A stretch of 39,889 nucleotides of DNA, taken from positions 58,859,284 to 58,899,172 of the forward strand of contig NC_057718.1 of the NCBI RefSeq assembly GCF_004010195.1, in the 5' to 3' direction. A model generated the notes under the pieces. The model was not told the origin of the DNA, did no database searches, and was given only the letters and a program-made list of their open reading frames with translations. Below, in pieces: positions 1,362-39,889 of the stretch; the stretch's first letter is position 1, and each line of letters begins with the position of its first letter. Made by a program: the position numbers and the translations under genes. The DNA is from Chiloscyllium plagiosum (lineage: Eukaryota).

Positions 1362-1969
1362 CCCCTGCTATTGGCCTGAAGAATATGGTTAATGTTTGTT
1401 CTCTTTTCTATTTTTCCCTATGTTTTCCCTTCCTTTCTTTTATTTCTTTCTTTCTTCCTAATAATTTCCTTTTTGGAAAGGGGGAAAAGACTGGAATAAG
1501 TTGTTCCTTTTTTTTAATAACTGGATTTTCTGATGGGAAATTTTGCGGATGTTCTTTGGTGTCTCTCACTTTTTTTTGTTTGTTCTGCTTCTCTTTTAGT
1601 CACAAGTCGGGGTGACATGAAGCTAGGGATGGGTGGAGTGCTCATCCTGACTTGGTCTTTTGATTTAAGGATCATGTCCTTGTTTTTTTTTTCTGGCCTA
1701 AGGCTGGGGCACAGTCCGGGTTTGAAGGAGCTGTGAAGGACAGGATGGGTAGGGTGAGTGCCCCCTATGAGCAGGGGGAAGAGTCTTCCATTCAAGGTTG
1801 TATAGTTGGTTTTCTTTGTAGCTTTGTAATGGTAATAGTTGTTTATAGTTATGAAGAGTAATTTTTGTATATATAGTTCTTTGATTCTATGAGTCTTTAT
1901 TTACTTATGCTCGGTGCTTTGTAAGCAGGGTTCTCCCTCCGAGGGGTTCAAAGTTCTCTGAAAGGGGAT

Positions 1970-4900
1970 AAGGCTAAGTGTCTTATTAAATGGTGCACCT
2001 GGAACATTAAGGGAAGTCATTCGCCTATTAAAAGGAAAAAAGTGCTTTCTAGCCTTAAGAGAGAAAGAGTTGATATTGCTTTGTTGCAGGAAACCCATCT
2101 TGATGATGGGGAACACCTGAAATTACAACAGGAGGGTTATGACCAGGTATTCTTTTCATCCTTTACTACTAAAAGTAAGGGAGTGGCGGTACTTATCCAG
2201 AAAAATCTTCTGTTCACATTATTAGAGCAGATAAAAGATGAGCAGGGACGGTTTGTGATACTTAAAGCCCTGATACATGGGGAGGAGTATGGCAATTTAA
2301 ATGTCTACTGTTCTCCAGTGCATCCCCTCAAATTTTTGATTAGTGCTTTCTCTAAGTTGAGTGCTTTTGGAACATGGCACATTATTATGGGGGGGGAGAT
2401 TTTAATTGTCTTTTGGATCCGACAATGGACAGGATGCCTTGTGGGTCCCCAACTATTTCTTCACAGGCCAAGCAGGTGGTTTACTTATGCGAGGAGTTGG
2501 GGCTGGTGGATATTTGGAGATGTCTTCACCCTACAGGCAGGGACTCCACCTTTTTTCAAACCCACATAAATGTCACACGAGGATTGACCTCTTTCTGGCT
2601 CCCTCGGCCCTTCTGGATTCGATTATGAGTTGTAAAATTGGGAATATAGCTATCTCTGATCATGTGGCAGTATATTTGGAGGTTAAGACCAAGAGTGAAG
2701 GGCTAGGTTTGCGGCACTGACGTTTGGACCCTTTTCTCCTTAAGGATTCCAAATTTGTGGAATACTTTTTGAAGTAGTTTCAGGAATTCTTGACTATCAA
2801 CTCAGGCACGGCTAGTAGTCCGTCCATGCTATGGGAGACTGCTAAGGCCTTTGCTAGGGGATTAGCTATTTCCTATTTGACTAGCCGGAAACGACAGAAG
2901 GAGGAACAGCAGCGTCTAATTGAGACATGGTTGAAAGCCGCGGAGGCAGCACATTTTGCGGGGCCTTCGGTCACTAAGCTACAGCGGATCACAGCCCTTC
3001 GGGCTATGACAAAAAACGCAAAGAACTTGCTATTGCTAGACAGAGGCTGTTCGAATATGGGGACAGGCCAACGAAGTATTTAGCGTACCTGACTAGGAAA
3101 AAGTGTGCTCCCCAATCCATTACTGCAATCAGAGACAGCGCCGGGGTCCTTACATAAGATGCTAAAAAGATTCATGAGGCTTTTCGGAGCTTTTACTCTG
3201 AATTGTATCGGTCTGAAGGTTGCGAAGACAGAAGTAAGAACCTGGACCTCCCAGGAGTAACCTTGGAACAGGCCTCTCTCCTTAATGCCCCCTTAACAGT
3301 TCAGGAAATGTATGAGGCAGCATCGGCAACTTCAGAGTGGGAAAGCGCCTGGCCCTGATGGTCTCCCAGGTGAGTTTTATAAGGAGTTTATAGAGATTCT
3401 GTCAGGGTTCTGTTGGAGATGTACAATCACTCCTATATGCATGAACGCCTACCACCATCTTTGAGAGAAGCTAATATTTCCTTAATTTTTAAGAAGGGGA
3501 AGGTTCCTGAGGATTGTGCCTCATACAGGCCCATCTCTCTATTAAAATGCAGACTTCAAGATTCTGTCCAAGACCCTGGCACTGAGATTGGAAAGGGTGT
3601 TGCCCCATATTATTAAAGAGGACTAGACAGGTTTTATAAGGGGCCGTAGGTCCTTGAATAATATTAGAAGGTTGCTGAATATGGCCCAAGTTTGTCAGCA
3701 ACGATCGGTTCAGGGGTTGGTGATTTCCTTAGATGCAGAGAAAGCATTTGACCGGGTGGAATGGCCGTATCTTTTTTATGTCTTAGAACAGTTTGGTTTG
3801 GGTGGAATCTTTGGTAGGTGGGTGGAGGTTTTATATCGCCACCCTCTGGCCGCAGTCATCACCAAAGGAGTGGATTTTAGGATTGGTCGGGATAGTCAGC
3901 AAGGCTGCCCCCTCTCACCGTTGTTGTTTACGTTAGTGATAGAGCCGCTGGCAGAGGCTATTCATCAGAACGTCCATATAACTGCTCCGGAAGTGGGATT
4001 GAGGGCACACAAGACTACATTGTATGCAGATGACGTCCTTCTGTTTTTATTGAACCCAATGACCTCTGTACGCCATTTTATACAATGTATCAATTCAATT
4101 GGGGCTATTTCAGGATATAAGATTAACTTTGCAAAATCGGAGGCTATGCCTTTGGGGAACATTAAGGATGAGCCAGAAGTTGAAGGTGGCCCTAAGTTCC
4201 CTTTTAAGTGGTCACAGGCAGGGTTCCAATACCTAGGCATTTTTATTACCCCCACGTTTGATCTGTTATTTCGGACTAACTTTGCTCACTTGCTCGACAA
4301 TATTAGGCAAGATCTCCAGAGATGGGAGACTCCTCCAATTTCATGCTTGGGCCGAACATCTCTCATTAAGATGAATGTTCTTCCTCGTTTGCTTTATCCC
4401 ATGAGTACACTCCCTATAATGTTTCCCAGGTCAACGCTGCGGAAGCTTATGGGGTGGTTTGGTTCCTTTGTCTGGCATCATGGGCAGCCCCTCATCCAAC
4501 TTATTAAATTGCAGTTGCCTCAAGGAGGGGGAGGAGTTGATTTCCCAGATATCAGGAGGTATCAATTGAGTTCCCTGCTGTCCTTTGTCTGCGATTGGGT
4601 AGGTAACGATCCAGGCTCAATATGGCTGGATAGTGAGGCCTCCCAAGCAAAGTGCCCTCTTATTAACCGGTTGTTCATGGATAAGATGAGGACAGTAATG
4701 GACCACTGCCAGAACCCCATTGTCATTAGTACAGTCAGGGCTTGGAGGGCGATGCGTCAGAGTGAGGGTTGTTTATCCAAGACTTCGCCACTTACACCTA
4801 TAGTTGGTATGCCAGGGTTCCGACCAGGGATGATGGACTCAGGGTGGAGTTTCTAGTTTAGGAGGCTTGTTTGAGGGAGAGGTTATGATGTCTTTTGAGC

Positions 4901-5690
4901 AACTGAGCCACAAATACGGGTTGCCCAGCAGAGATCTTTTCTGTTTTTTTCAGGTTAGGGATTTCATCCAGAAGAAGACTACGCTTCTCACTAAGCCCTA
5001 TAAGCCCAATACAGAGAAGTTGTTGCTATGTTCCACAAGCACCCTTTCAGTTAGTGCCCTGTATTGCCAGCTAGGTGGCAGGGCCTGGCAGGATATTAGC
5101 TGGTTATGTGAGGTCTGGGAGCAAGATCTGGGAGTGGAGATCTCTTCTGAAACATGGGAGAACATATGGGAGAATACTCGAAAGATCTCAATCTGTAATA
5201 GGACATGCGCTACGCAGTTTAAAGGTCTGCACAGAGCTCATCTGGCACCAGACCGTCTGGCGAAGTTTAAAAAAGGGACATCTTCAATGTGCCCCAAATG
5301 TATATTAAGTGTAGGTACTCTTACCCATTGCTTCTGGACATGCCACAGGCTCCGTGTTTATTGGAGCACTGTGGCGGGAGAGATAGGGAGGGTATTGAGG
5401 ACTGAAGTCAAAGTAGACCCGATATCTCTCCTCTTATGGTTTACCAAATTTACCATCTTTAGACGGGCATAGGAAGAAACTATTTAATATTCTTGCACAC
5501 TGTGCACGGAAGAATATTCTGATGAATTGGGTATCTGAGAACCCGTTGGGCTTGCTGGGATGGCAGAAATTAATTATGGAACACATTCCCTTAGACTTTT
5601 TCACAAACATGGTGCACCACACAACAGACCATTTTTATAAGATATGGAAGCCCTACTGGAGTTATTTGGATATAGATTTGTCAGTTTAAT
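1970..5690 (+). pseudogene. L1 ORF2 (APE endonuclease, reverse transcriptase, CCHC knuckle), frameshifted
   Basis: Motifs WNIKG, LLQETHL, GGDFN, RIDLFL..ISDH, KAPGPDG, YRPISL, SLDAEKAFDRVEW, QGCPLSPLLF, LYADD and CPKC..HCFWTC. There are multiple stops and frameshifts, and the start codon appears mutated. Confidence 0.92.
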
Positions 5691-6063
5691 TAGGGCATTT
5701 GTTTAATGAGGATGATTAGATTTGTCAAGCCCTGGGCCCTGGAGGGGGTTTCCTGAGTTAATGCGGGTATGTATACAATGCTCCCGTTCCTTTGTTTGGG
5801 AGCCTTGTGCCGAGCATAGCTGTTCTGTATTTTGTGGGGTTTTTTTTTGCTTTTTTTGCTTCTCTTTCTTTTTTTTTGGTGTTGCTTTGCACAGTGTTAG
5901 GGTTTGCTTTGTATTATAAAGTAGTTAGTAGTTAGTAGATAGTAGTTGTATTGTAATTTGTGTTTTATTCTTTTTATTATACTGATATTTGTGAATGTTT
6001 TTTTCAATAATTTTATATGTTTGTAAAGTTAAAAAAATTGCTAATAAATATATTTACAAAATA

Positions 6064-6220
6064 AAAGTGGTGCTGGAAAAGCAAGCTGGTCAGGCAGCAT
6101 CCGAGGAGCAGGAAAATTTACTTCATCAGAGGCTTGAAAAATATGTTGCTGGAAAAGCGCAGCAGGTCAGGCAGCATCCAAGGAGTAGGAGAATCGACAT
6201 TTCTGGCATAAGCCCTTCTT
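6064..6220 (-). mobile_element. PLE terminus (family A/A'), right part, two tandem partial copies
   Basis: gctggaaaagcgcagcaggtcaggcagcatcc..gaatcgacatttctggcataagcccttctt matches 23877-23947. Confidence 0.8.
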
Positions 6221-6239
6221 CTTGTCTGGCAGCTCACGA

Positions 6240-12830: not shown

Positions 12831-13393
12831 TTTGTGTGTAATCCATCTTAGACATGCCAATGGCATGCTGCAAAAGTAGGAAGGGTTTCCTGGACAGTGA
12901 TCTAATTGAGAGGAAGTTGGAGTTATCATCATTATCCAAGGATCCAGAGTACAGCATGCAAATGAAAGTGCATATTGCTATAGCAACATGCCACTATTTT
13001 AATCACCAGTTTAATGGGGAAAATTGATTCGTTGCTAGGTGAAGATTGTAAGAAGATGAGTTAGTACCAGAAGAAGCTCATCAAGGTTTAAACTTTTAAA
13101 TCTTTGCTCATGAGATGAGCTTGCTCTTTTGGAGAGCACAGGAATAGGTTGGTCTCCTTTAACCTGAGGTTCTGCTTCATTTCTCAGCTGAAACAACATT
13201 TTGGAAACTAGTTTCTCAGACATCATAAAGTCATCTGAATAGATTGGAAAGCTTGACACCAACTCAGTATTCTCAGGCCCAATCGCTTTTCCATCTGCTT
13301 ATTATTGATGTGGAGGTGCCAGTGTTGGGCCCGGGTGGGCAAAGTTAAAAATCACACAACACCAGGTTATAGTCCAACAGGTTTATTTGAAAG

Positions 13394-13428
13394 CACTAGC
13401 TTTCAGAATGCTGCTCCTTCGTCAGGTA
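13394..13428 (-). ncRNA. Minimal type I hammerhead ribozyme motif (family B), weakened stem II
   Basis: Reverse strand reads tac CTGACGA a ggagc agc attct GAAA gcta gtg. Confidence 0.5.
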
Positions 13429-13805
13429 ACTAGTGGGGCAAGATCAGAAGACACAGAATTTATAGCAAAAGATTATAGTTTCATGCAATTAAAATGCTCT
13501 TTTACAATGGGTTGCAGGTTTAGGTTCATTAATATGTAAATCCCAGAACTATTTTCAAGTCACATTCTTGAGATAACTTAAGGTTTTATAAAAAAAGATG
13601 ACATCTCAGCTCAGACAATGCATTAAAGGTGTGAGGCTAGAGCCTGTTTGAATCCCAATCTTGAGTTACACTAGTTCTATTTCCAAAGTAGGAATTCATA
13701 AAGTGTTTTATATACATTGATTACCGTAGGTTGTGTGCTTTTTGAGCAAAAATAGAATGCATCTGCAAATACAATTCTGCAAATGCAAATTCACCCCATA
13801 GACTT

Positions 13806-14112
13806 ATATATGTGTGTATGTGTGTATATGTGAGGGAGAGAAAGAGAGTGTGAGTGCGTGCATGTGAGTGTGAGTGCACATGTGAGAGGGGGCATTTGTG
13901 TGTGTGCTTAGTAGAATGTGTGCATTAGTGATGGAGTATAAGCCTGTGAGAGGGTGTGTGCATAGGGGGTGTATGTGTGTGTGCCTGAGAAACCGCATGT
14001 ATGCCAGATGGTCTGCATGACTGTGTGAGTATGTAAGTGTGTGTGTATATGTGCTATGTAAGGGTGTGTGTATGTGTGTGCTTTTGTGTGTGTGCATGTG
14101 TGAGAGAAAGAG
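13806..14112 (+). repeat. Degenerate (TG)n/(GA)n microsatellite
   Basis: Directly visible; it lies between the inverted arms of the family B element. Confidence 0.9.
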
Positions 14113-14411
14113 AGTACTTTGGGAATAGAACCAGTCTGAGTCAAGATTACAATACAGACAGACTCTAACCTCACACCTTTAATACATTGTCTGAGCTGAG
14201 ATGTAATTTTTTAAATAAAACCTTAAATTAACTCGAGAATATGACTGAAGAGAAGTTCTATGATTTATATATTAATGAACTGAAATCTGCAACCCATTCT
14301 AATAGATGAAAGACTTAACAATAATCTAAGTTTGTTCAATGTATTATTTCAATTGCATGACACTGTGATATTTTGCTTTAAATTTGTGTCTTATGATTCT
14401 GCCCCACTAGT

Positions 14412-14446
14412 TACCTGATGAAGGAGCAGCGCTCTGAAAGCTAGTG
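14412..14446 (+). ncRNA. Minimal type I hammerhead ribozyme motif (family B)
   Basis: Reads tac CTGATGA a GGAGC agc GCTCT GAA AGCT A gtg: intact core, palindromic AGCU stem III and a predicted CUA cleavage triplet. Confidence 0.7.
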
Positions 14447-14530
14447 CTTCCAAATAAACCTGATGGACTATTACCTGGTGTCATGTGATTTTTAACTCTG
14501 CTTATTATTGACAGACAACAGAAATATATA

Positions 14531-16480
14531 AAACAAAGAACAAACAAAGAAAATTTATAGCCCAGGAACAGGCCCTTCGGCCCTCCAAGCCTGAGCCATT
14601 CCAAGTCCACTGTCTAAACCTATCACTCAATTCCTAAGCATTTGTATCCCCACCTACTCATGCATCTGCCCAGACGCATCTTAAATGAATCTACTGTGCC
14701 TGCCTCCACTACCTCTGCTGGCAATGCAGTCCAGGCGCCTACCACCCTCTGTGTAAAGTACTTGCCATTTGTATTGCCCCTTAAACTTTTCACCTCTCAC
14801 CTTGAAAGCGTGACCTCTCATCATTGAATCCTTCACCCTGGGAGAAAGCTTATCTCTGTCTACCCTTTCTATACCCTTCATGATTTTGTAGACCTCAATC
14901 AGGTTCCCCCTCAATTTCCTTTTTTCTAATAAAAACAAACCTAACCTATTCAACCTCTCTTCATAGCTAACACCTTCCATACCAGGCAACATCCTCATAA
15001 ACCTTCCCTGTACCCTCTCCAAAGCATCCACATCCTTTTGGTAATGTGGGGACCAGAACTGTAGACAGTATTCTAAATGCGGCCAAACCAATGTCGCGTA
15101 TAATTTTAACATGACCTGCCAGCTCTTATACTCAATATCCCATCTGATGAAGGCAAGCATATCATATGCCTTCTTGACCACTCTATCTACCTGTGCAGCA
15201 ACCTTCAGTGTACAATGGACCTGCACTCCCAGATCTCTCTACTCATCAACTTTTCCCAAGACCCTGATGTTTACTGTATAATTCGCTCTAGAATTAGACT
15301 TCCCAAAATGCATCACCTCACATTTGCCTGAATTGAACTCCATCTGCCACTTTTCCACCCAACTCTCCAGTCTATCTATATTCTCCTGTATTCTTTGACA
15401 TTCCCTTATGCTTTCTGCTACTCCACCAACCTTTGTGTGATCTGCAAACTTGCTGATCATACCAACAGTGCCCTCTTCCAGATCATTTATGTATATTACA
15501 AACAACAGTGGCCCCAGCACTGATCCCTGTGGAACACCACTGGTCACCTTTCTCCATTTTGAGAAACTCCCTTCAACTACTACTCTCTGTCTACTATTAC
15601 TCAACCAGTTCTTTATCCATCCAGCTAGAAGACCCTGCACACCATGTGACTTCACTTTCTCTATTAATTTACCATGGGGAACCTTATCAAACGCCTTACT
15701 AAAGTCCATGTATATGACATCTACAGCCCTTTCTTCATCTATCAATTTGGTCACTTCCTCAAAGAACTCTATAAAGTTGGTAAGGCATGAACTCCCCCGC
15801 ACAAAACCATGTTGCTCATCACTGATAAGCCCATTCTTTTCCAAATATAAATAGATTTTATCCCTCAGCACCTTCTCCAGCAACTTTCCCGCCACTGACA
15901 TCAGGCTCACTGGTCTGTAGTTTCCTGTACAAGAAGGGTAGTAGGGATATTCCGGGTAACTACCCTTTTTGTACAGGAGAACATGAGCAACCCTCCCGTC
16001 CTCCGGCATCTGACTGTGTTTAAGGATGCTGCAAAGATATCTGTCAGGGCCCCAGTTATTTCCTCTCTCACCTCCCTCAGCAACCTGGGGTAGATCCCAT
16101 GCAGGCCTCGGGATTTGTCCATGTTAATAACCTCTAGCTTATCCAACACATCTTCCCCACTTATGTCAACGTGATTCAGAGTAATCAAACTTCTATCTCT
16201 AATCTCAAAATTCATCATGTCCCCCTCCTTAGTGAACACTGATGCAAAGTGAATCATTCAGAATCTCACCCATTCTCTCAGGTTCGACACACAACCTTCC
16301 TTCATTATCCTTTAGTGGACCAATCCTTTTTCTAATTACCCGCTTGCTTCTTATATAAGAATAAAAGGCTTTGAGAATCTCCTTAATTCTGCTTGCTAAA
16401 GCTATGTCATGACCCATTTTAGCCTGCTTGATTCCTTGTTTAAGACTTGTCCTACTCTTCGATATTCCTCCAAGGTCCAT
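14531..16480 (-). mobile_element. CR1 LINE, 5'-truncated
   Basis: Motifs YRPVSL, QHGFVRG, MDFSKAFDKVPH, SGVPQGSVLGPLLF, SKFADH and HLEYCLQFWSP; aaacaaag tail. Confidence 0.92.
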
Positions 16481-19309: not shown

Positions 19310-20006
19310 TTAGGATCAGGAGTAGGCCACTCAGCCCTTCAAACCTATTCTGCTATTCAGTGAGATCATGGTTGTGTTCAACTTAAATACCATTTTCTTT
19401 CACTAACCTCTTATATTTTGATATTTTTAACATGTAAAAAAATCTAATTTCAATCTTGAACATGCTCAACGATGGAACCTTCACAACACTCTGGGGTAGA
19501 GAGCTTCAATGATTTCTCCTCATCTCAGTCCTAAGTGGTTAGCCCCTAATACTGAGACTATGTATCCTGCTTCTAGAACTCCTCCCCCCAGGGGAAACAA
19601 TCTTCCTCCATCTACCCTTTCAATTCATGTAAGAATATTGTATGTTTGAATGAAATCATCTCTCATTCTCCTAAACTACAGAGAATATAAGCGCCCTTTA
19701 TTTAATCTTTTCTCACAAGTCAACCTTTTATTCCAGGAAAGAGTTTGGCAAATCTTTCTTGCACTCCTTCTATGGAAGCATACTTTTTTTTAAAGGCAAG
19801 AACATCAAGGCGCACACACTACTCCAGGTATAGTCTAAACATGGTTCTATATAATTGTAGCAAGACAGCTTTAGAGTTGAAAATGTGTTGCTGGAAAAGC
19901 GCAGCAGGTCAGGCAGCATCCAGGGAACAGGAGAATCGATGTTTCGGGCATAAGACCCAGCAAGACAGCTTTACACTTGTATTCAAAACCTCTTGTAATA
20001 AAGGCC
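19310..20006 (-). mobile_element. Old CR1 3' fragment containing an 85-bp PLE insert
   Basis: Collinear with 6630-7250 (aggagtaggccactcagccc..). Confidence 0.7.
19874..19958 (-). mobile_element. 85-bp single-arm PLE terminus (family A) with 15-bp TSD
   Basis: TSD agcaagacagcttta at 19859-19873 and 19959-19973. Confidence 0.85.
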
Positions 20007-21360: not shown

Positions 21361-21558
21361 GTTAAAAATCACACAACACCAGATTATAGTCCAGCAGGTT
21401 TAATTGGAAGCATTAGCCTTTGGAGCACCGCTCCTTCATCTGGTGAGAGCGGTGCTCCGAAAGCTAGTGCTTCCAATTAAACCTGTTGGACTATAACCTG
21501 GTGTTGTGTGATTTTTAACTTAGTACACCCCAGTCCAACACCGGCATCTCCAAATCAT
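21361..21558. mobile_element. Fold-back PLE-derived element (family B), ~200 bp
   Basis: Arms 21361-21434 and 21447-21520 are inverted, with the tail 21521-21558 on the right arm only. Flanking direct repeat tg(a/g)ctaaggtta at 21353-21364 and 21558-21569. Confidence 0.88.
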
Positions 21559-23827
21559 GGCTAAGGTTAGGATTTTGCATTTAACCATGAGACATAACAC
21601 AAAACGAACTCATTTTTATTCCAATGTTTCATGAATATTTAGAGGTGGGCTTCCCTACTGATTGTCTGCAGAGTCAGGCAGTCCACTCATGTGGTGTCAC
21701 TAATTTGAATATGTTTTCCAACGTTATTTGAAAAGAGTTGTATCCATTTATTAAACATGGTCAAAAGGTAAGTAGATTTCTGATGTGGAAATTGTCATGG
21801 CAGGTCCACAGTTTGAGGCTCCCCAATTTGTTTCGATCTGGACAAGATATCCTTAATGATTGCACACATGAGTGAAGATCAATGAATTAATTCCCTTTTT
21901 TAATTTAACCCCTCTCTTGGTTATGATAAGATTCATCTTTTAAAAAAATTCCTGTCTCATGGATTTCCATTTCCAAACCAATTGTTTGAAGCAGCCATAA
22001 TTAACATAGTTTTCTTCACTTAAAGAAAGGATGAGCTTATTAGCTACAAAATCTGTGAAAAAATAATAAAACAAAATGTCACAGGTATAGCATAGTCTAG
22101 AAACATGAATTGAGTAAAAAGATAACAATTAAAAAGATACAAAACTAAATCCCTGGTTTCTATGAAGAGCAAATAATGGAAAATTATGTCCATTAGGTTG
22201 GAGTAAAGCTGACATTGACAGTAAAGCAGTCAGTTCAAGATTCTTGACTCTGCAGTTGGCTGACAGGCTTTTGTCCTTTTCCCTTCTCTATGTTGACTTA
22301 ACTGGCTTTCTGGGTGTGCAGCACTCAGATTGAGATAGATACTTTATTTCAACTACAGTGCAGGGGTATCTAATGGCTATCCTCAGGCTATGAACGAACT
22401 GTGAACATCCTTTAATGCTCATCAGAGCATTAATAATCAAAGATCAGTAATTGCAGTTTTTTTAAATCTTTTTTTTGTGAATTTCTAGAAGCATAAAACA
22501 CAAACATGTCTACAGTTAGAGATATAATTCACAGTAGATACTTTACACTGAGAGGTGCATTAACCCCTTTTAACTGTCTCTCTTTTGAAAATTCCTTGAC
22601 ACTCTACAGGTGTGATATCCAATTGATTCACACAGGACTATCATGGACAGTCACTAAATGTAATTCCACAGACATCTTTTGACTGTTTCAAAAGCACATG
22701 TTGTAATTAGAACTTCACTTTATTGATAAGTAACCTGAGTTCAGAATCCATTGTTATGACAAGTGGTTTAGGGAAGGAATTTCAGAGCTTAAGACCCACG
22801 TACTGAAAGGTGATGATGTGGTGATGAAAATTGAGGATGTGTAAGAGCTGATATTTGGATGAGCTCAGATAGAGTCATGCAGTCATGGAATCATAGAGAT
22901 GTACGGCATGGAAACAGATCCTTCGGTCCAGATTGTCCATGTTGACCAAATATCCCAAACCAATCTAGACCCACTTGCCAGTGCCTGGCCCACATCCCTC
23001 CAAACCCTTCCTATTCATATACCCATCCAGATGCCTTTTAAATATAACATTGCATCAGCCTCCACCACTTCCTCTGGCAGCCCATTCCATACATACACCA
23101 CCTTCTGCGTGAAAAAGCTGCCCCTTAGGTCTCTTTTATATCTTTCCCTTCACTATAAACCTAGTTCTGGACTCCCACTCCCAGGGAAAAGACCTGATCT
23201 ATTTACCCTATCCATGCCCCTCATGATTTTATAAACCTCTATAAGGCCACTCCTCAGCCTCCGATGCTCCAGGGAAAACAGCCGTAGCCTGTTCAACCTC
23301 TCCTTATAGTTCAAATTCTTCAATCCTGGCAATATCCTTGTAAATCTTTTCTAAACCCTTTCAAGTTTCACAACGGCTTTCCAGTAAGAAGGGGACCAGA
23401 ATGGCATGTAATATTCCAAAAGTGGCCTAACCAATGTCCCGTACAGCCGCAACATGACCTCCCAAGTCTTGCACTCAATATTCTGACCAATAAAGGTCTC
23501 TTTGTTCAGCAACACTCACTAGGACCTTACCATTAAGCGTATAGATCCTGCTAAGATTTGCTTTCCCAATATGCAGCACGTCACATTTATCTAAATTAAA
23601 CGCCATCTGCCACTCCTAAGCCCATTGGCCCATCTGATCCAATATCCCGTTGTAATCTGAGGTAACCTTTTTCGCTGACCACTACATCTCCAATTTTGGT
23701 GTTATCTGCAAACTTACTCACTATACCTCTTATGCTCACATCCAAACCATTTATATAAACAGTGAAAATTAGTGGACTCTGCACCGATCCTTGTGGCACC
23801 CATTGGTCACAGGTCTCCAGTCTGAAA

Positions 23828-24039
23828 GGAGAAAGTGAGGTCTGCAGATGCTGGAGATCAGAGCTGGAAATGTGTTGCTGGAAAAGCGCAGCAGGTCAGG
23901 CAGCATCCAGGGAACAGGAGAATCGACGTTTTGGGCATAAGCCCTTCCTGAAGAAGGGCTTATGCCCGAAACGTCGATTCTCCTGTTCCCTGGATGCTGC
24001 CTGACCTGCTGCGCTTTTCCAGCAACACATTTCCAGCTC
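23828..24039. mobile_element. Fold-back PLE-derived element (family A), 212 bp
   Basis: Arms 23861-23947 and 23953-24039 form an almost perfect inverted repeat, with a 33-nt tail (23828-23860) on the left only. TSD ctccagtctgaaa at 23815-23827 and 24037-24049. Confidence 0.92.
23946..23977 (+). ncRNA. Minimal type I hammerhead ribozyme motif (family A)
   Basis: Reads tc CTGAAGA a GGGC ttat GCCC GAA ACGT C ga; predicted GUC cleavage triplet. Confidence 0.7.
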
Positions 24040-24525
24040 CAGTCTGAAAAACAACCCCCCACCACCACCCTCTGTTTTCTATCTTCGAGCCAGTTCTGTA
24101 TCCAAATGGCTTGTTCTCCTTGTATTCCATGAGGTCTAACTGTGCTCACTAATCTCCCAAGGGAAACCTTGTTGAATGCCATACTGAAGTCCATATAGAT
24201 CACATATATTGCTCTGCCCTAATCAATTCTCTTTGTTATTCCTTCAAAAAACTCAATCAAGTTTGTGAGGTGTGATTTTCCATACACAAAGTCATATTGA
24301 CTATCAGTCCTTGCCTTTCCAAATACATTTACATCCTGACCCTTAGGATTCCCTCCAACAACTTGCCCAATACCGAAGTCAGGCTCACTGGTCATAGTTG
24401 CCTGACTTGTCCTTACCACCTTTCTTAAACAGTGACACTACGTTAGCCAACTTGCAATCTTCTGGCACCTCACCTGTGACTATCGATGGTACAAATATCT
24501 CAGCAAGAGGCCTAGCAATCACTTT

Positions 24526-26136
24526 CCCAACGCCTTATCTTCACCATGGTCCCCAACGCCTTATCTTCACCATGGATCCCCAATGCCTTATCTTCACCAT
24601 GGACTCATCTCTGCATACCTCAACATGGTCCTGTCCCCCTTAGTCCAAGAACTCCCCACCTACGTTCGGAACACCACCCACGCCCTCCACCTCCTCCATG
24701 ATTTTCACTTCCCCGGTCCCCAACGCCTTATCTTCACCATGGACATCCAGTCCCTGTACACCTCCACCCCCCATCACGAAGGACTCAAAGCCCTCCGCTT
24801 CTTCCTTTCCTGCCTTACCAACCAATTCCCTTCCACTGACACCTTCCTTCGACTGACTGAACTGGTCCTCACCCTGAACAACATCTCTTTCCAATCCTCC
24901 CACTTCCTCAAACCAAAGGAGTAGCCATGGGCACCCGCATGGGCCCCAGCTATGCCTGCCTCTTCGTAGGATATGTGGAACAGTCCATCTTCCGCAGCTA
25001 CACTGGCACTCCCCCCACCTTTTCCTCCGCTACATCGATGACTGTATCGGCGCTGCCTCATGCTCCCACGAGGAGATTGAACAGTTCATCCACTTTACCA
25101 ACACCTCCACCCCGACCTCAAATTCACCTGGACCGTCTCAGACTCCTCCCTCCCCTTCCTAGACCTTTCCATTTCTATCTCGGGCGACCGAATCAACACG
25201 GACATTTACTATAAACCGACCGACTCCCACAGCTACCTAGACTACACCTCCTCCCACCCTGCCCCCAGTAAAACCGGCATCCCATATTCCCAATTCCTTT
25301 GTCTCCGCCGCATCTGCTCCAGGAGGACCAGTTCCAATACCGAACAACCAAGATGGCCTCCTTCTTCAAAGACCGCAATTCCCCCCCAGACGTGGTCGAC
25401 GATGCTCTCCACCGCATCTCCTCCAATTTCCGCTCCTCCGCCCTTGAGCCCCGCCCCTCCAATCGCCACCAGGACCGAACCCCACTGGTCCTCACCTACC
25501 ACCNNNNNNNNNNNNNNNNNNNNNNNNNNNNNNNNNNNNNNNNNNNNNNNNNNNNNNNNNNNNNNNNNNNNNNNNNNNNNNNNNNNNNNNNNNNNNNNNN
25601 NNNNNNNNNNNNNNNNNNNNNNNNNNNNNNNNNNNNNNNNNNNNNNNNNNNNNNNNNNNNNNNNNNNNNNNNNNNNNNNNNNNNNNNNNNNNNNNNNNNN
25701 NNNNNNNNNNNNNNNNNNNNNNNNNNNNNNNNNNNNNNNNNNNNNNNNNNNNNNNNNNNNNNNNNNNNNNNNNNNNNNNNNNNNNNNNNNNNNNNNNNNN
25801 NNNNNNNNNNNNNNNNNNNNNNNNNNNNNNNNNNNNNNNNNNNNNNNNNNNNNNNNNNNNNNNNNNNNNNNNNNNNNNNNNNNNNNNNNNNNNNNNNNNN
25901 NNNNNNNNNNNTCACCTTGACCTCCTTCCACCCATCACATTTCCAATGCCCCTCCCCCAAGTCCCTCCTCCCTACCTTTTATCTTAGCCTGCTGGACACA
26001 CTTTCCTCATTCCTGAAGAAGGACACATGCCCGAAACGCGATTCTCCTGTTTCTTGGATGCTGCCTGACCTGCTGTGCTTTTCCAGCAACCCATTTTCAG
26101 CTCTGATCTCCAGCATCCGCATTCCTCACTTTCGCC
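24526..26136 (+). mobile_element. 5'-truncated Penelope-like retroelement (RT fragment, family A 3' end)
   Basis: PLE-type RT motifs IFTMDIQSLYTS, GVAMGTRMGPSYACLFVG, FLRYIDD and YYKPTD..YL; it ends in the family A terminus. A 16-bp TSD gcctagcaatcacttt lies at 24510-24525 and 26134-26149. Confidence 0.9.
25504..25911. other. Assembly gap (N run)
   Basis: Run of n characters. Confidence 1.
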
Positions 26137-26568
26137 TAGCAATCACTTTTCTTGCTTCCCACAGAGTTCTAGGGTACACCTGATCAGGTCCTGGGGATTT
26201 ATCCACTTTGTTGCATTTCAAGACATCCAGCACTTCCTCCTCTGTAATATAGACATTTTTCAAGATGTCACCATCTATTTCCTTACACTCTATATCTTCC
26301 ATGTCCGTCTCCACAGTAAACACTGATGCAAAATGCTCATTTAGTATCTCCGCCATCTCCTGCGGTTCCACACAAAGACCGCCTTGCTGATCTTTGAGGG
26401 GCCCTATTCTCTCCCCAGTTACCCTTTTGTCCTTAATGTATTTGTAAAAACCCTTTGGATTCTCCTTAACTCTATTTGGCAAAGCTTTATCATGTCCCCT
26501 TTTTGCCCTCCTGATTTCCCTCTTAAGTATACTCCTACTGCCTTTATACTCTTCTAAGGATTCATTTG

Positions 26569-26704
26569 GGTTAGTGGTGCTGGAAGAGCACAGCAGTTCA
26601 GGCAGCATCAGGAGCTTCTCTTTGGATGCTGCCTGAACTGCTGTGCTCTTCCAGCACCACTAATCCAGAATCTGGTTACCAGCATCTGCAGTCATTGTTT
26701 TTAC
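26569..26704. mobile_element. Fold-back PLE-derived element (family A'), 136 bp, lacking the hammerhead core
   Basis: Inverted arms ttagtggtgctggaagagcacagcagttcaggcagcatc / gatgctgcctgaactgctgtgctcttccagcaccactaa, with a tail on the right only. TSD ctaaggattcatttg at 26554-26568 and 26705-26719. Confidence 0.9.
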
Positions 26705-28096: not shown

Positions 28097-28505
28097 ATTT
28101 TATTATTATTTGTTCATGGCATGTGGCTTGGCCAGCATTTATTGCTCATCACTAATTGCCCAGAGGACACTTAAGAGTTAACCGCATTGCTATGGGTCTG
28201 GAGTCATATGCAGGCCAGACCAGGTAAGGATGGCAGTTTCCTTCCCTAGAGGACATTAGTGAACCAGATGGCTTTTTCTGACGATCAACAATGGAGACTC
28301 TTAATTCCAGTTTTTTTTAAATTGAATTCAAATTCCTCCATCTGCCATGGTGGGATTCAAATCCAAGTCCCCAGAACATTGCCTGGGTCTCTGGAACAAC
28401 TCGTCGGATGCTGCCTGAATTGCTGTGCTCTTCCAGCATCTGCAGTCATTGTTTTTACCTCTGGATTAACAGTCCAACAATAATATCACTAAACCATTGC
28501 CTCCT
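28097..28505 (-). mobile_element. tRNA-derived DeuSINE (SacSINE1-like) containing a small PLE insert
   Basis: The reverse strand has a tRNA-like head, a Deu-like core (ggttcactaatgtcc..ggaaggaaa..ccttacctggtctggcct..gactccagaccc) and a tail shared with LINE family 2. A PLE A' fragment at 28396-28458 is flanked by ctctgga repeats. Confidence 0.75.
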
Positions 28506-29924: not shown

Positions 29925-30445
29925 TCTGGCAGCATCTGTGGAGAGAAAGTAGAGTTAACATTTAGGATGCAGTGAAACTTCTTTATAACTGATGGTAGCG
30001 GGGAAAAGGTTGTCTTTTTATGCAGAAGATAGGGTAGAGGGAGGGGACAGGAATAAACAATAGGTGGAAATAGAGCCCAAAAAGAGTGAAGAACAGGAGA
30101 AAAGACAGGGCTCTTAGCCCACTCTGACCCATCTCCTGCACTTCAGCCCTCTTTTCCCTCCCACCATTGTCCTCATCTACCATCCCACCAGCATCCACAT
30201 TCAGAGGATCATTAGCCACAATTTCCACCACATCCATCAGGATGCGACCACCAGATACATACTCTGTCAGCATTCTTCATGGACTGTTCTGTCCTGTGTC
30301 ACCATGGTCCACTCCTCCTTCACTGCCAACACATCCCCAGAGCACCTTCCCCTGCAACCGCAGAAAGTGTAACCTGCCCATTTACTTCCTCCCTTTTCAG
30401 TATGCAAGGGCCCAAACACACTTGCCAGGTGAAGTAGCACTGTAG
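29925..30445. mobile_element. Old PLE (family C): reverse-strand terminus followed by a plus-strand ORF fragment
   Basis: ctggcagcatctgtggagagaa.. matches the reverse complement of 33545-33566. The plus strand reads TFPCNRRKCN, a Cys-rich RT-EN linker. Confidence 0.6.
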
Positions 30446-30697
30446 CAATGTAGGCTTAAATAAAATGTTGCAGAGAGATGGAGAGAAAATCTCACCCTGC
30501 CATCTTAGGTGAGCGCTTACCAAATCTATATTCGACATTCACAGAAAGGGTTGTAAAACATGACCTCTCGTTGTTAGCAGTATACTCTAAACGTCAGTTT
30601 ACCAACTCATGCCGCCCAACTTACCTTTAGCCATGGTTCTTTTTAATCAAGGTGATTAACTTTTAATATCCCTGTGGTTGACTTTTTAAAAATTCAG

Positions 30698-30830
30698 GGA
30701 GAAAGTGAGGTCTGCAGATGCTGGAGATCAAAGTTGAAACTTTATTGCTGGAACAGCACAGCAGGTCAGGCAGCATCCAGGGAACAGGAGATTCGACGTT
30801 TCGGGCACAGGCCCTTCTTCAGGAATGAGA
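30698..30830 (-). mobile_element. PLE terminus (family A) with tail
   Basis: Matches 23828-23947 and extends through the whole hammerhead. Confidence 0.88.
30791..30826 (-). ncRNA. Best-preserved minimal type I hammerhead ribozyme motif
   Basis: Reverse strand reads ATTC CTGAAGA a GGGC ctgt GCCC GAA ACGT C GAAT: stem I ATTC/GAAT, stem II GGGC/GCCC and palindromic ACGU stem III. Confidence 0.78.
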
Positions 30831-31190
30831 AGAACAGAAACAGAATCCCCAAGTGGAAAATGAAGTGTTGTTCTTTGAACTTGCGTTAAGGAACACTGCA
30901 ACAGATCTGGGACAGAAATGTTGGTGTAGGAACACAGTGGTGTGTTGAAGTGGAGGCAGTGGGAAACTCTGGGTCATGTTTTACAGACAGAGTGTAGGTG
31001 TTCAGCAAAGCGGTCATCAAATCTGTGTTTCATCTCCCCCGATATACAGGAGACCACATTCTGAGCAGTGAATGAAATAAATGAGTTGAGAGAAGTGCAG
31101 GTAAGCTGCTGCTTCACCTGGAAGGTGTGCCTGAGGCCTTGGATACTGAGGTTGGAGGAAGTAAATCGGCAAGTAAGTCACCTTGTGCAA
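30831..31190 (-). pseudogene. PLE GIY-YIG endonuclease relic
   Basis: Across frameshifts it reads QVKQQLTCTS..CSECGLLYIG.EMKHRFDDRFAEHLHSV..HFNTP..KFKEQHFIFHLG. Confidence 0.75.
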
Positions 31191-32985: not shown

Positions 32986-33427
32986 TTCTTCTCACAGATG
33001 CTACCATATCAGCAGAGTCTCTGCAGAAATTTCTGTTTTGTTTCCAATCTCCAGCATTCGCTGTTGTGTTTTAATTCCCAAATGAGCCTGACTTTACAAG
33101 CAAATGTGACTGACTGAGTTCCAGCTGACAAAGAGGGAAGGAGCAGAAAAGCTGGGTGACTGGTTGGCCAATAAAATCTGAGTGCTTTGCTGAAGCATGC
33201 AAATATTTTTCAAAGCACAACATCTGTCAGACAAATAAGTCATTTGTTTAATCTCCGCAAAGAACTATTCAATGCTGATGGCTTGTGAAGGCTTATGATG
33301 CTGGGAGCTTAGCTTCAGTAATGTGTGTAAGATCCTTTCATTGTTCTAAATACCTACAGTGTGGCTGTTAGAAGATGCAGCTTGTGGGCTGTTACATCCA
33401 CATTTCTGTCAAGTCCTAATGATATGT

Positions 33428-33567
33428 TAAAAGCCAAAAGAACTGCGGCTGCTGTAAATCAGAAACAAAAACAGAAATTGTTGGAGAGACTCTGCTGGTA
33501 TGGTAGCATCTGTGGGTTCTGAGGCTCAGTCGACCCAAAACGTTTCTCTTCACAGATGCTGCCAGCT
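33428..33567. mobile_element. Degenerate fold-back PLE-derived element (family C)
   Basis: tggtagcatctgtg and cacagatgctgcca are inverted around a decayed ctga..gacccaaaacgtt core; the left arm matches the reverse complement of 32990-33070. Confidence 0.55.
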
Positions 33568-33917
33568 CTAATGCTATGTTCTAGGTTCAGTTACAGAAAG
33601 CAAGCAAGCAGGCTCTTGCTCAAAGTTTTCTCCGCCTCTCGTTCCTTTACCTCATAAAGGATAAAGCTGGATGGGATGCTGAGACATTTTCTTATTTGGT
33701 GAGGGATCCACTGGGAATGATAACTAAGCAGAGATACTTGCCATGTGTTCAGTGTGTCGGTCTCTGCTGTCTGCTTTGCCTGGAGCTGCTGCTTCCATTA
33801 TGCGCCTGGGACCCATGATTTTCATCGCAACTCACTCTGTGATTATCTTTTTGAATTGAGACTCAACAGCATTTGGCAAGATTTAACAATGTTACTCAGG
33901 GCTGGCAACACAGAAAC

Positions 33918-34082
33918 AAAGTTAAAAATCAGACAACACTAGGTTATAGTTCAACAGATTTATCAGCTACCTGATGAAGGAGCAGTGCTCCGGAAGCTAG
34001 TGCTTCCAAATAAACCTGTTGGACTATAACCTAGTGTTGTCAGATTTTTAACTTTGCCCACCTTAGTCCAACACCGGCACCT
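33918..34082. mobile_element. Fold-back PLE-derived element (family B)
   Basis: Arms 33918-33963 and 34011-34056 are inverted. The hammerhead at 33968-34002 has GAAA changed to GGAA, and the tail is on the right arm. Confidence 0.85.
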
Positions 34083-34782
34083 AGCAGGTTGTCTGTGCGG
34101 CGATTCCGGAGGCGGTTGTTTGGGCCGCGATCATGAAGGTTGCGCGGTCGGTGGGGGCGGAAGTGACGTCATCGTCGGCGGCGTCTGCGGCTATTGCCGC
34201 GGGCGCTGTAGCGGCCGCGTGTGTAATGGCGCCGGACTGGTTTCGGAGGCCGATGGAAGTTTCTGGAACGGTTGAGGTATCCGGAGTTTGGGGGTAAGTG
34301 CATGAAAGTTTTTGGTACTTACTGCCTTTAATTTCCGATATGGCTAGAAAGAACTGTTTGTTCAGTCTATGGATTCTTCTGTGGATGAAGAACAGTAGAG
34401 GTCCTTTACATGTCTGTGAGAGAGTTGTCCTGAGCTGGGGTATGTCGAGTTGCAGGGAATGTAGGTACCGGCGCATGGCTGCAAGCGTGGAGTGGAGGAT
34501 CTGGAGGGAGGTCCGTTGCTGGAGGCTGCGGATTTGTTGCAGGTACTGGTAGTCCTGGTTGGGTCCAAATTGTGTTGGTCGGAAGGTGATCTGGAGTCCA
34601 TGGGGGATCAGTCGGTTCCGTAGGCAGGTGCTGAGAAAGGAGATATGGCTGTGGTAACGAGTCTGCTTCAGAATGTGGCTGAAGAGCTTCTGTGCAGAGG
34701 AGATGACCTGGGGTGTGCAGTGAGAGAGGGACTCACTGAAATCTTTGTAGAGAGAGGCAGAGAGCTTCTTCAAGGAAGGCAT
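34081..34782 (-). CDS. Uninterrupted 233-aa ORF, probable N-terminal part of a PLE polyprotein (3'-truncated)
   Basis: ATG start; HISFLSTCLRNRLIPHGL resembles the PLE N-terminal 'HxxFLxxCxxxxxIPxGL' motif. It is CpG-rich and ends at the junction with the family B tail. Confidence 0.6.
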   Translation of the reverse strand: MPSLKKLSASLYKDFSESLSHCTPQVISSAQKLFSHILKQTRYHSHISFLSTCLRNRLIPHGLQITFRPTQFGPNQDYQYLQQIRSLQQRTSLQILHSTLAAMRRYLHSLQLDIPQLRTTLSQTCKGPLLFFIHRRIHRLNKQFFLAISEIKGSKYQKLSCTYPQTPDTSTVPETSIGLRNQSGAITHAAATAPAAIAADAADDDVTSAPTDRATFMIAAQTTASGIAAQTTC

Positions 34783-34799
34783 CCTTGTAAGGCATCCTT

Positions 34800-35670
34800 T
34801 AAAAATTCACTCCTGGAGCATGGCTGACCAGCATTTATTACATGTTCCTAATTGCCCTTGAGAAGGTGGTGGTGAGCTGCCTTCTTGAACTGCTGCAATA
34901 CATATGCTGTTGATTGATCCACAATAACCAAAGGGAGGAACTTCCAGGATTTTGACCTTGTGAGACTGAAGGAACAGTGATATATTACCAAGTCAGGATG
35001 GTTAGTGGCTTGGAGGGGAACCTGCAGGTGGTGGTGTTCTAATATATCTGCTACTCTTATCCTTTCTAGGTGAAAGTGGTCATGGGTGTGGAAGGTGCTG
35101 TCTAAGAATTTGCCCTGGATGGTGTTAAGCTTCTTCAGTGTTGTTGGAGCTGCATCCATCCATATGGATTCCATCAGACTCCTGACTTGTGCCTTATAGA
35201 GATGGTGGTCAGGCTTTGGGAGTCAGGAGGTGAGTTACTTGCCATAGTACTCCTAGCCTCTGACCTGCTCTTTTAGCCACTGTGTTAATGTGGTCAATAG
35301 TAACCCCAAGAATGTTGATAGTGTGGAATTCTGTGATGGTAATGCCATTGAATGTCAAGGGATGATGTTTAGATTATCTCTTTTTGGAGGTCAGCCCAAG
35401 CCTGGATAATTGTCCTGATCCAATTGCTTTTGAACATGGACTGTTTCAGTATCTGAGGAATCGCAAATGGTGATGAACATTGTGAAATCATCAGTGATCA
35501 TCTCTACTTCCGATTTTCTGGTAGAGGGAAGGTCATTGATGAAGCAGCTGAAGATGGTTGGGACTTGGGCACTACCCTGAGGAACTCCTGCAGAGATGTC
35601 CTGGAGCTGTGATGAATGATCTCCAACAACTGCAACCATCTTAACACATGCCAGATATGCCGCCAATCAA
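34800..35670 (-). mobile_element. CR1/L2-group LINE family 2, internally deleted
   Basis: Reads AGVPQGSAQVPTIFSCFINDLP..EMITDD; collinear with 20100-21180. Confidence 0.8.
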
Positions 35671-39273: not shown

Positions 39274-39592
39274 GATATTGGGAATTCACTAATGGTTCTT
39301 GTCTTGTTATGGGTCCGCCAATATGCCCTCACTACTAACAATGTGCCCTAAGAAGTGAAAATGAAACCCAGGATGAGACTAGGTTACAGGTCTTCAAAAG
39401 CAAAATTTAATGGAGTTACTAAATATAACTTGACATTCATTGTATCATATTGGTGCACTATATCCCATTTCAAAACATGTTATTTTAATTACATTTTCTG
39501 AATCACCCTGTTCAACGATGTTACTACACACTCCTGGAGCAGGTGGGATTTGAACCTGAATTTTCATACTCACAGAGTCATAGAGATATACA

Positions 39593-39889
39593 GGTAAAAA
39601 AAGGGCTGCAGATGCTGGAAACCAGATTCTGGATTAGAGTGGTGCTGGAAAAGCACAGCAGTTCAGGCAGCATCCGAGGAGCAGGAAAATCGATGTTTTG
39701 GGCAAAAGCCCTTCATCAGGAATACAGACAGAGTGCCTGAAGGATGGAGAGAATACAGGCACTCTGCCTGTATTCCTGATGAAGGGCTTTTGCCGGAAAT
39801 GTCGATTTTCCTGCTCCTCGGATGCTGCCTGAACTGCTGTGCTTTTCCAGCACCACTCTAATCCAGAATCTGGTTTCCAGCATCTGCAG
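39593..39889. mobile_element. Fold-back PLE-derived element (family A') with two decayed hammerheads; runs off the window end
   Basis: 39606-39738 is an inverted repeat of 39757-39889. Confidence 0.9.

Follow-up and report, generated by a model that had tools for sequence, protein, structure and literature searches.

Is a 212-bp fold-back insertion in a decayed LINE of Chiloscyllium plagiosum a MITE, a hairpin that copies itself, or a product of retrotransposition, and did it form on its own or by amplification of a preexisting hairpin? We addressed this question within a stretch of 39,889 nt (the window), in which the insertion is designated A and the other inverted insertions B to G (Table 1). 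The layout given in the original prediction, with two 87-nt arms around a 5-nt spacer, a 33-nt tail and a 13-bp TSD overlapping the short arm by 3 nt, proved exact. The arms are 99% complementary (1 mismatch in 87 nt). At the center, the microhomology belongs to both arms and the spacer to the tailless arm, where it continues the sense strand as found in a sister copy of a Penelope-like element (PLE) at 26010-26018; the tail aligns with sister-copy tails at 66-98, 26104-26136, and 30698-30730. Divergence between the arms is 1/87, compared with 4/84 to 21/112 for other copies, and two minority alleles occur on both arms (23867/24033 and 23910/23990). Because divergence is so low and these alleles are held in common, the arms stem from one event and one template lineage; judged by the same arm identity, A is young.

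Table 1. Coordinates of element A, of the other inverted insertions, and of the source family in the window
Feature	Position	Strand	Description
Element A, whole	23828-24039		212 bp; fold-back insertion
A long (tailed) arm	23861-23947	-	Antisense PLE 3' end, truncated inside hammerhead core
A short (tailless) arm	23953-24039	+	Sense PLE 3' end, ends 33 nt before tail end
A tail	23828-23860	-	33 nt, unpaired; left arm only
A center	23945-23952	+	3-nt microhomology plus 5-nt spacer
A, left TSD copy	23815-23827	.	13 bp, host LINE DNA
A, right TSD copy	24037-24049	.	First 3 nt common to A short arm
Minimal type-I hammerhead-like motif, A	23948-23979	+	Core, 4-bp stem II, palindromic helix III, weak stem I
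Hairpin B	21361-21558	.	Second family; tailless arm left, tailed arm right; TSD 12 bp, 1 mismatch
Hairpin C	26569-26704	.	Sister subfamily of A; TSD 15/15; without hammerhead core
Hairpin D	33917-34082	.	Second family; tail cut short; tailed arm holds center
Insertion E	13309-14497	.	Second family; 1.19 kb; TSD 15/15; hammerhead motif in both arms
Hairpin F	33428-33567	.	Third family, decayed; TSD 13 bp, 1 mismatch
Hairpin G	39592-39889	.	C subfamily; runs off window end; arms 134 nt
5'-truncated PLE, A family	24526-26133	+	Longest copy in window; no inverted arm
Its decayed RT region	24604-25502		tblastn E 1e-121
Its N gap	25504-25911		408 N, between RT part and 3' end
Its 16-bp TSD	24510-24525 and 26134-26149		
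Solo copy, A family	19874-19958	-	85 bp, non-inverted, tailless end, 15-bp TSD

Element A splits a LINE RT remnant, presumably of CR1 type, and the reading frames on both sides carry the same four residues at the duplicated site; a similar window ORF (15242-16123) matches RVT_1 in Pfam. The two TSD copies agree at 13/13 positions, and the last base of the left copy (23827) also fits the family tail end. Among 1500 random boundary pairs drawn from the window, only 3 gave a direct repeat of at least 12 nt with at most 1 mismatch. An empty form of the LINE, with the upstream flank joined directly to 24037, is present in 13, 13, and 14 contigs of three DNA runs and in 21 RNA reads, in each case in paralogous LINE copies rather than in an allele or orthologue of locus A. 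Because these paralogues join the flank directly to 24037, the 13-bp repeat is a true duplication of host DNA. The best run contains 0.61 of the sampled words. No listed contig spans locus A, which would fit a hairpin that arose by folding back during assembly or library preparation. However, such an artefact would hardly produce an exact 13-bp host duplication, asymmetric arms and a mismatch between them, a TSD also bounds five more cases, and comparable joints occur in three other sequencing runs from two organisms; we consider an artefactual origin barely credible.

The arms of A match 26010-26136, where a unit flanked by a TSD and containing RT remnants has its 3' end. The relatives of this RT remnant comprise 105 proteins, with shark and ray members reaching 82% identity, and some of them combine PF00078 (RT) with PF01541 (GIY-YIG), the architecture of PLEs. 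The C-terminal part of these relatives matches another decayed copy at 30893-31183, and the GIY-YIG region of the longest copy falls in or beyond its N gap. Pfam scans returned no match for either PLE RT fragment or for the ORF at 34084-34806, the latter also being matched by 0/105 of these relatives, and the PLE identity accordingly rests on protein relatives and tblastn rather than on a direct Pfam match. An RT-coding partner within the window exists for the A family only, with B, D, E, and F having no coding partner there.

A is bounded on both sides by termini of its family. At the tail end, 1015 contigs stop at 23827 and 387 at 23828 in DNA run X1, and because they break there into unrelated flanks, this end is a sharp terminus of the whole family. 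The short arm of A and the solo copy terminate at the same base; the short end of A is absent among the loose ends listed from the sequencing runs. The A family thus comes as plain tailed copies, plain tailless copies, and hairpins that combine a tailed with a tailless copy, with TSDs of 13-16 bp. The solo copy, the 16-bp TSD around the RT-bearing PLE, and hairpin G had all escaped the original prediction.

Because non-inverted copies have the same ends and TSDs of 15-16 bp, A is a PLE product and not a MITE, as the original prediction had proposed; the terminus of an RT-coding PLE in the arms and a TSD range (12-16 bp) common to inverted and non-inverted copies bear this out. Size, long inverted arms, lack of coding sequence, and a fold-back look do give A and its kin the appearance of MITEs moved by a DNA transposase. 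Their ends, however, are those of a retroelement and recur on non-inverted solo copies as well as on the element that codes RT; the arms do not form symmetric terminal repeats, since a 33-nt unpaired tail occupies one end; and the TSDs, far from having the fixed 2-9 bp named in the original prediction as the mark of true MITEs, vary between 12 and 16 bp. Moreover, a Pfam scan of 7 out of the 30 window ORFs detected no transposase family. We give the MITE reading practically no credence.

Similar insertions occur in the window at a density of about one hairpin per 6 kb, and in all of A to G both 3' ends point outward. The claim that several other sites follow the same plan as A stands for B, C, E, and F, which are TSD-bounded, but requires qualification: D lacks a TSD, E at 1.19 kb is not a mini-element, and one arm of F is short. 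In D, the best direct repeat is 5-6 nt and the tail ends at 34082 beside unrelated sequence; likewise, no TSD of at least 10 bp was found at 6063-6221, 28400-28460, 30698-30825, or 32993-33065. The arms of E are ~380 nt long, the right arm of G extends ~20 nt into the tail, and tails measure 33 nt in A, ~38 nt in C, and ~35 nt in B and E. A family-specific endpoint of the short arm, also claimed, holds in A, whose short arm stops at the base of the solo copy, but not more widely: endpoints scatter over ~10 nt in the second family, and that of F is far off, ~45-50 nt before the tail start of its long arm. TSD lengths are 12, 13, 13, 15, and 15 bp for hairpins and 15 and 16 bp for non-inverted copies; because this range is common to both, a single integration reaction seems to underlie all of them, whether or not inversion accompanies it.

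Whether each hairpin was made anew can be read from its center. As the original prediction had stated, each center is different, and this applies to 7/7 window hairpins. In three DNA runs, 14/15 of the joints listed link an antisense to a sense arm, at different places and in 1-6 contigs per run (10 of the 14 were flagged "between: not known", and joint sides are 19-28 letters long); many of them carry a few extra letters at the junction. Because centers differ both among window hairpins and among these listed joints, they favor formation at each insertion, in agreement with the preference expressed at the outset for independent events. The competing idea is a non-autonomous family of hairpin RNAs that propagates itself, remobilized whole by PLE proteins. 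Such a family would account for joints 10-25 times deeper than long contigs (depth 14-22), some with summed depths of 460-512, and for the 4/14 listed joints that recur in all three DNA runs; either small multicopy groups exist or the depth figures are too high. A 3-nt insertion at 23943, present in 17, 9, and 8 contigs of the three runs (3%, 0.6%, and 0.6% of local depth) and in 2/246 RNA reads, could be a recurrent center or an alignment effect at contig ends. Another center, 1-2 nt from that of A, was found in one contig (depth, 9.8), and 7 RNA reads, with 5 starts among them, run through it. Non-autonomous derivatives of PLEs are also on record (PMC8557442; preprint 10.64898/2026.07.22.740005). 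Against a hairpin RNA family stand the different centers of all window hairpins and the depth of the arm-to-arm joints listed, none of which exceeds a summed depth of 512, compared with ~10 million on the arms (joint counting was saturated in DNA runs X1 and X3). A reinserted hairpin RNA should, in addition, itself be truncated and inverted.

The hammerhead motif bears on the same idea. A strict motif scan, requiring the hammerhead core and stem II, passes at 23948, 13425, 14415, and 30822. Among the seven hairpins it passes only in the right arm of A and in both arms of E, so that the description of these elements as ribozyme-bearing fits A and E but is too broad for the set, in which 5/7 fail, C lacking even the core. 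The predicted motif has an extra base before stem II and a palindromic helix III, the features described for minimal hammerheads in PLE pLTRs (PMC4209133). At E <= 1, Rfam gave no hammerhead match in the window, and 7/8 of its matches are sub-threshold miRNA models lying on the hairpins; all of the miRNA matches on the hairpins score far below the gathering threshold, and we rejected a miRNA identity. Nor did a placement of centers at the ribozyme cut site find support: the predicted cut is followed by base 23976, where 2/14 joints resume, but 23950 and 23955 are each used just as often. In one poly(A) single-cell RNA run, a library type uninformative on ribozyme cleavage, no position had many molecule starts or ends. 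The predicted fold of the whole element has a free energy of -195.4 kcal/mol, versus -161.0 kcal/mol with stem II enforced, and the motif would therefore be sequestered in the long hairpin if A were transcribed whole. Because forming stem II within the whole-element helix is predicted to cost 34 kcal/mol, the folding model argues against a hairpin RNA with an active ribozyme, as does the failure of most hairpins in the motif scan. The self-propagating class entertained in the original prediction gained no positive support and is very unlikely, the one row with a possibly recurrent center (23943) being ambiguous. That a minority of hairpins has been remobilized as units by PLE proteins, forming small families with shared centers, we regard as very unlikely; the 23943-shifted center and the joints seen in two organisms would be the candidate members.

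We conclude that A and its kin are very probably dead-on-arrival insertions of EN+ Penelope-like elements, each made anew. As to how they are made, we consider priming on both target strands reasonably likely as an overall mechanism. The RT/GIY-YIG protein would cut the two target strands at positions staggered by 12-16 bp, and each target 3' end would prime reverse transcription, with one cDNA starting at the tail-end site and the other at an internal site ~33 nt upstream. In A, top-strand priming at the tail-end site would have produced the cDNA seen as the left arm, and bottom-strand priming at the inner site that seen as the right arm. Both cDNAs would stop after ~40-130 nt, in A near the hammerhead core; their ends would be joined head to head, either by microhomology of 0-3 nt, as in A through 23945-23947, or with a small number of extra bases, and fill-in would yield the TSD. 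If a single RNA or source element served as template for both arms, as we suppose, the usual one-sidedness of the tail would be accounted for. The tail is on one side only in 6/7 window hairpins (chance ~0.06 at 50%, the ceiling for independent use of two start sites), a pattern that hints at two primers engaging one RNA at its two start sites and that, with n = 7, is only a lead.

Several published observations have a bearing on this mechanism. In vitro, the protein of Poseidon PAc cuts and extends both target strands, is predicted to form a dimer, and uses two adjacent RT start sites whose spacing equals the tail (PMC11167929), and new PLE insertions in Chlamydomonas have a median length of 128 bp (PMC9977147). 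Within the window, the TSD and the element overlap at 8/9 scorable ends, by 17 nt in total (P = 0.001-0.05, depending on the assumed match rate; the tail end of B, for which there is no sister sequence, was omitted from scoring). Because of these overlaps, the sequences suggest primer-template pairing over 1-4 nt. The PAc start site was itself termed non-homologous to the target (PMC11167929). Arm reach was scored in A, B, and D, where sister copies allow the arms to be assigned (an assignment that C, E, F, and G lack): the tailless arm reaches further upstream in A and B and the tailed arm in D. That either arm can be the longer one fits the prediction of two separate cDNAs; a later central deletion could mimic such unequal reach.

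Head-to-head arms might also form by self-priming, in which a first cDNA or an antisense RNA folds at a short inverted match and copies itself during the same insertion. Near-identical arms with common minority alleles and the 3-nt inverted match at the center of A are what this route would leave, and antisense-template self-priming has been proposed for head-to-head pLTRs of rotifer PLEs (PMC3846280). However, snapping back of a tailed cDNA cannot give the 5 extra upstream bases on the tailless arm of A or the ~13 on that of B, a tailless cDNA cannot give a tail, and a single cDNA could lead to A or B only with a later deletion added. The template used in vitro, moreover, covers the sense pLTR-ORF junction (PMC11167929). 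On balance we find self-priming unlikely; the snap-back arguments apply to its cDNA version rather than to the antisense-RNA one.

A further possibility is secondary collapse, in which long inverted PLE insertions later lost their centers through microhomology-mediated deletion while keeping the TSD. Long palindromes are deletion-prone, and E represents a long form with the same plan. Microhomology-mediated deletions have also been reported in Penelope copies (PMC3846280). Collapse does not, however, account for the solo copy, which is extremely truncated without inversion and has an intact TSD, and it sits poorly with the youth of A and with the frequency of new PLE insertions of ~130 bp (PMC9977147); we hold it to be distinctly unlikely. 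Ordinary as elements, the short copies have modest practical value: with both ends, the center, and the TSD all preserved inside 200 bp, they lend themselves to an inexpensive census that sets two-strand priming against self-priming. They also form an annotation pitfall, resembling both MITEs and microRNA hairpins. Transcribed inverted Penelope copies are a source of siRNA in flies (PMC3681739).

The combination of an inverted copy, a one-sided tail, and a TSD has already been published for PLEs (PMC3846280; PMC8557442), and the original prediction, too, treated inverted pLTRs with a 3' extension as established for Penelope. Rotifer PLEs have head-to-head inverted pLTRs, a 31-bp one-sided tail (Pen2a_Av), and TSDs of 8-10 bp (PMC3846280), shorter than the 12-16 bp seen here. 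An inverted 5'-truncated copy with a 30-40-bp tail is considered typical of the PLE class in a paper that calls the formation of inverted insertions undefined (PMC8557442), and inverted pLTRs and extensions are mentioned in general terms elsewhere (PMC8969392, PMC12910113). As far as these descriptions go, A shares with complex EN+ PLE insertions the head-to-head inverted 5'-truncated copy, the one-sided tail, the outer TSD, and the pLTR hammerhead; here, in contrast, both copies are only 40-130 nt long and no ORF is left. The likeness to Poseidon PAc of Anolis carolinensis lies in two RT start sites separated by the tail and in the cutting and extension of both strands (PMC11167929). The PAc hammerhead lies upstream of the start sites and is dispensable for insertion; the sections of that account available to us draw no link to inverted insertions and describe a non-homologous start site, whereas 8/9 ends here have overlaps of 1-4 nt. 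Our search, which left subscription journals and supplements mostly outside its reach, found no paper dedicated to miniature or shark PLE hairpins.

Non-LTR retrozymes, which have been reported in one cartilaginous fish, are likewise non-coding, derived from PLE pLTRs, and equipped with a type-I hammerhead (Li et al., 10.64898/2026.07.22.740005). As described there, they consist of units repeated directly in tandem and contain two or more intact ribozymes, whereas the elements studied here are inverted pairs in which the motif is mostly broken or masked. A tandem array of at least two hammerhead units is absent among the 6 tandem-repeat rows for the window; fold-back families with shared centers, if they exist, would be the fold-back counterpart of tandem retrozymes. 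In L1 twin priming, both target strands prime, microhomology occurs at the inversion point, and TSD length is variable. An L1 inversion combines two segments of a single RNA that do not overlap, whereas both arms here copy the same stretch, so that two templates or a second pass over one template are needed. Set beside these systems, A is the shortest form of the published PLE insertion pattern, not a new self-copying element.

The truncated Penelope-like element (PLE) at 24526-26133, which bears a decayed reverse transcriptase (RT) region and belongs to the family of hairpin A (a 212-bp inverted pair of PLE 3' ends), contains an N gap of 408 bases (25504-25911), across which its RT part and 3' end are assigned to one element on the strength of the scaffold and the shared target-site duplication (TSD). 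At its 5' junction, immediately inside the TSD, lie about three copies of a 27-bp unit (24526-24603), possibly products of RT slippage at the truncation point. Two C-terminal coding pieces derive from a different PLE (see table), and between them lies a 128-bp tailed end of hairpin A's family (30698-30825). The arrangement spanning 30166-31183 is possibly a nested insertion or a longer inverted one.

Hairpin D, from a second PLE family, has no detectable TSD, which the neighboring open frame may explain. A profile search of the frame's translation returned no Pfam matches, and none of 105 PLE-related proteins matched it; it may represent a 5' portion of an ORF from a retroelement.

Selected features of the window, with positions and orientation
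Feature	Position	Strand	Remark
PLE C-terminal coding piece	30166-30276	plus	PLE other than 24526-26133
PLE C-terminal coding piece	30893-31183	minus	same PLE as 30166-30276, opposite orientation
Open frame, 241 residues	34084-34806	minus	adjoins cut tail of hairpin D
Decayed LINE	1925-5472		endonuclease (PF03372) and RT (PF00078) remnant
Hairpin regions with sub-threshold Rfam microRNA matches	23893-24007; 26574-26662; 39674-39821		

Two antisense PLE ends of different subfamilies form a direct tandem (6063-6221) for which we looked for a TSD and found none; the first lacks stem II, its hammerhead core running straight into downstream sequence. Two tailed ends of hairpin A's family (1-98 and 273-327), oriented tail to tail across a 168-nt gap, are probably separate insertions. 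At 28400-28460, an end of the sister subfamily typified by hairpin C lacks about 25 nt internally, the deletion being flanked by two similar short words. Besides the decayed LINE, several further RT remnants are scattered over the window.

In the Rfam search, seven of the eight matches were sub-threshold microRNA models on the hairpins, which are a likely origin of false microRNA calls.
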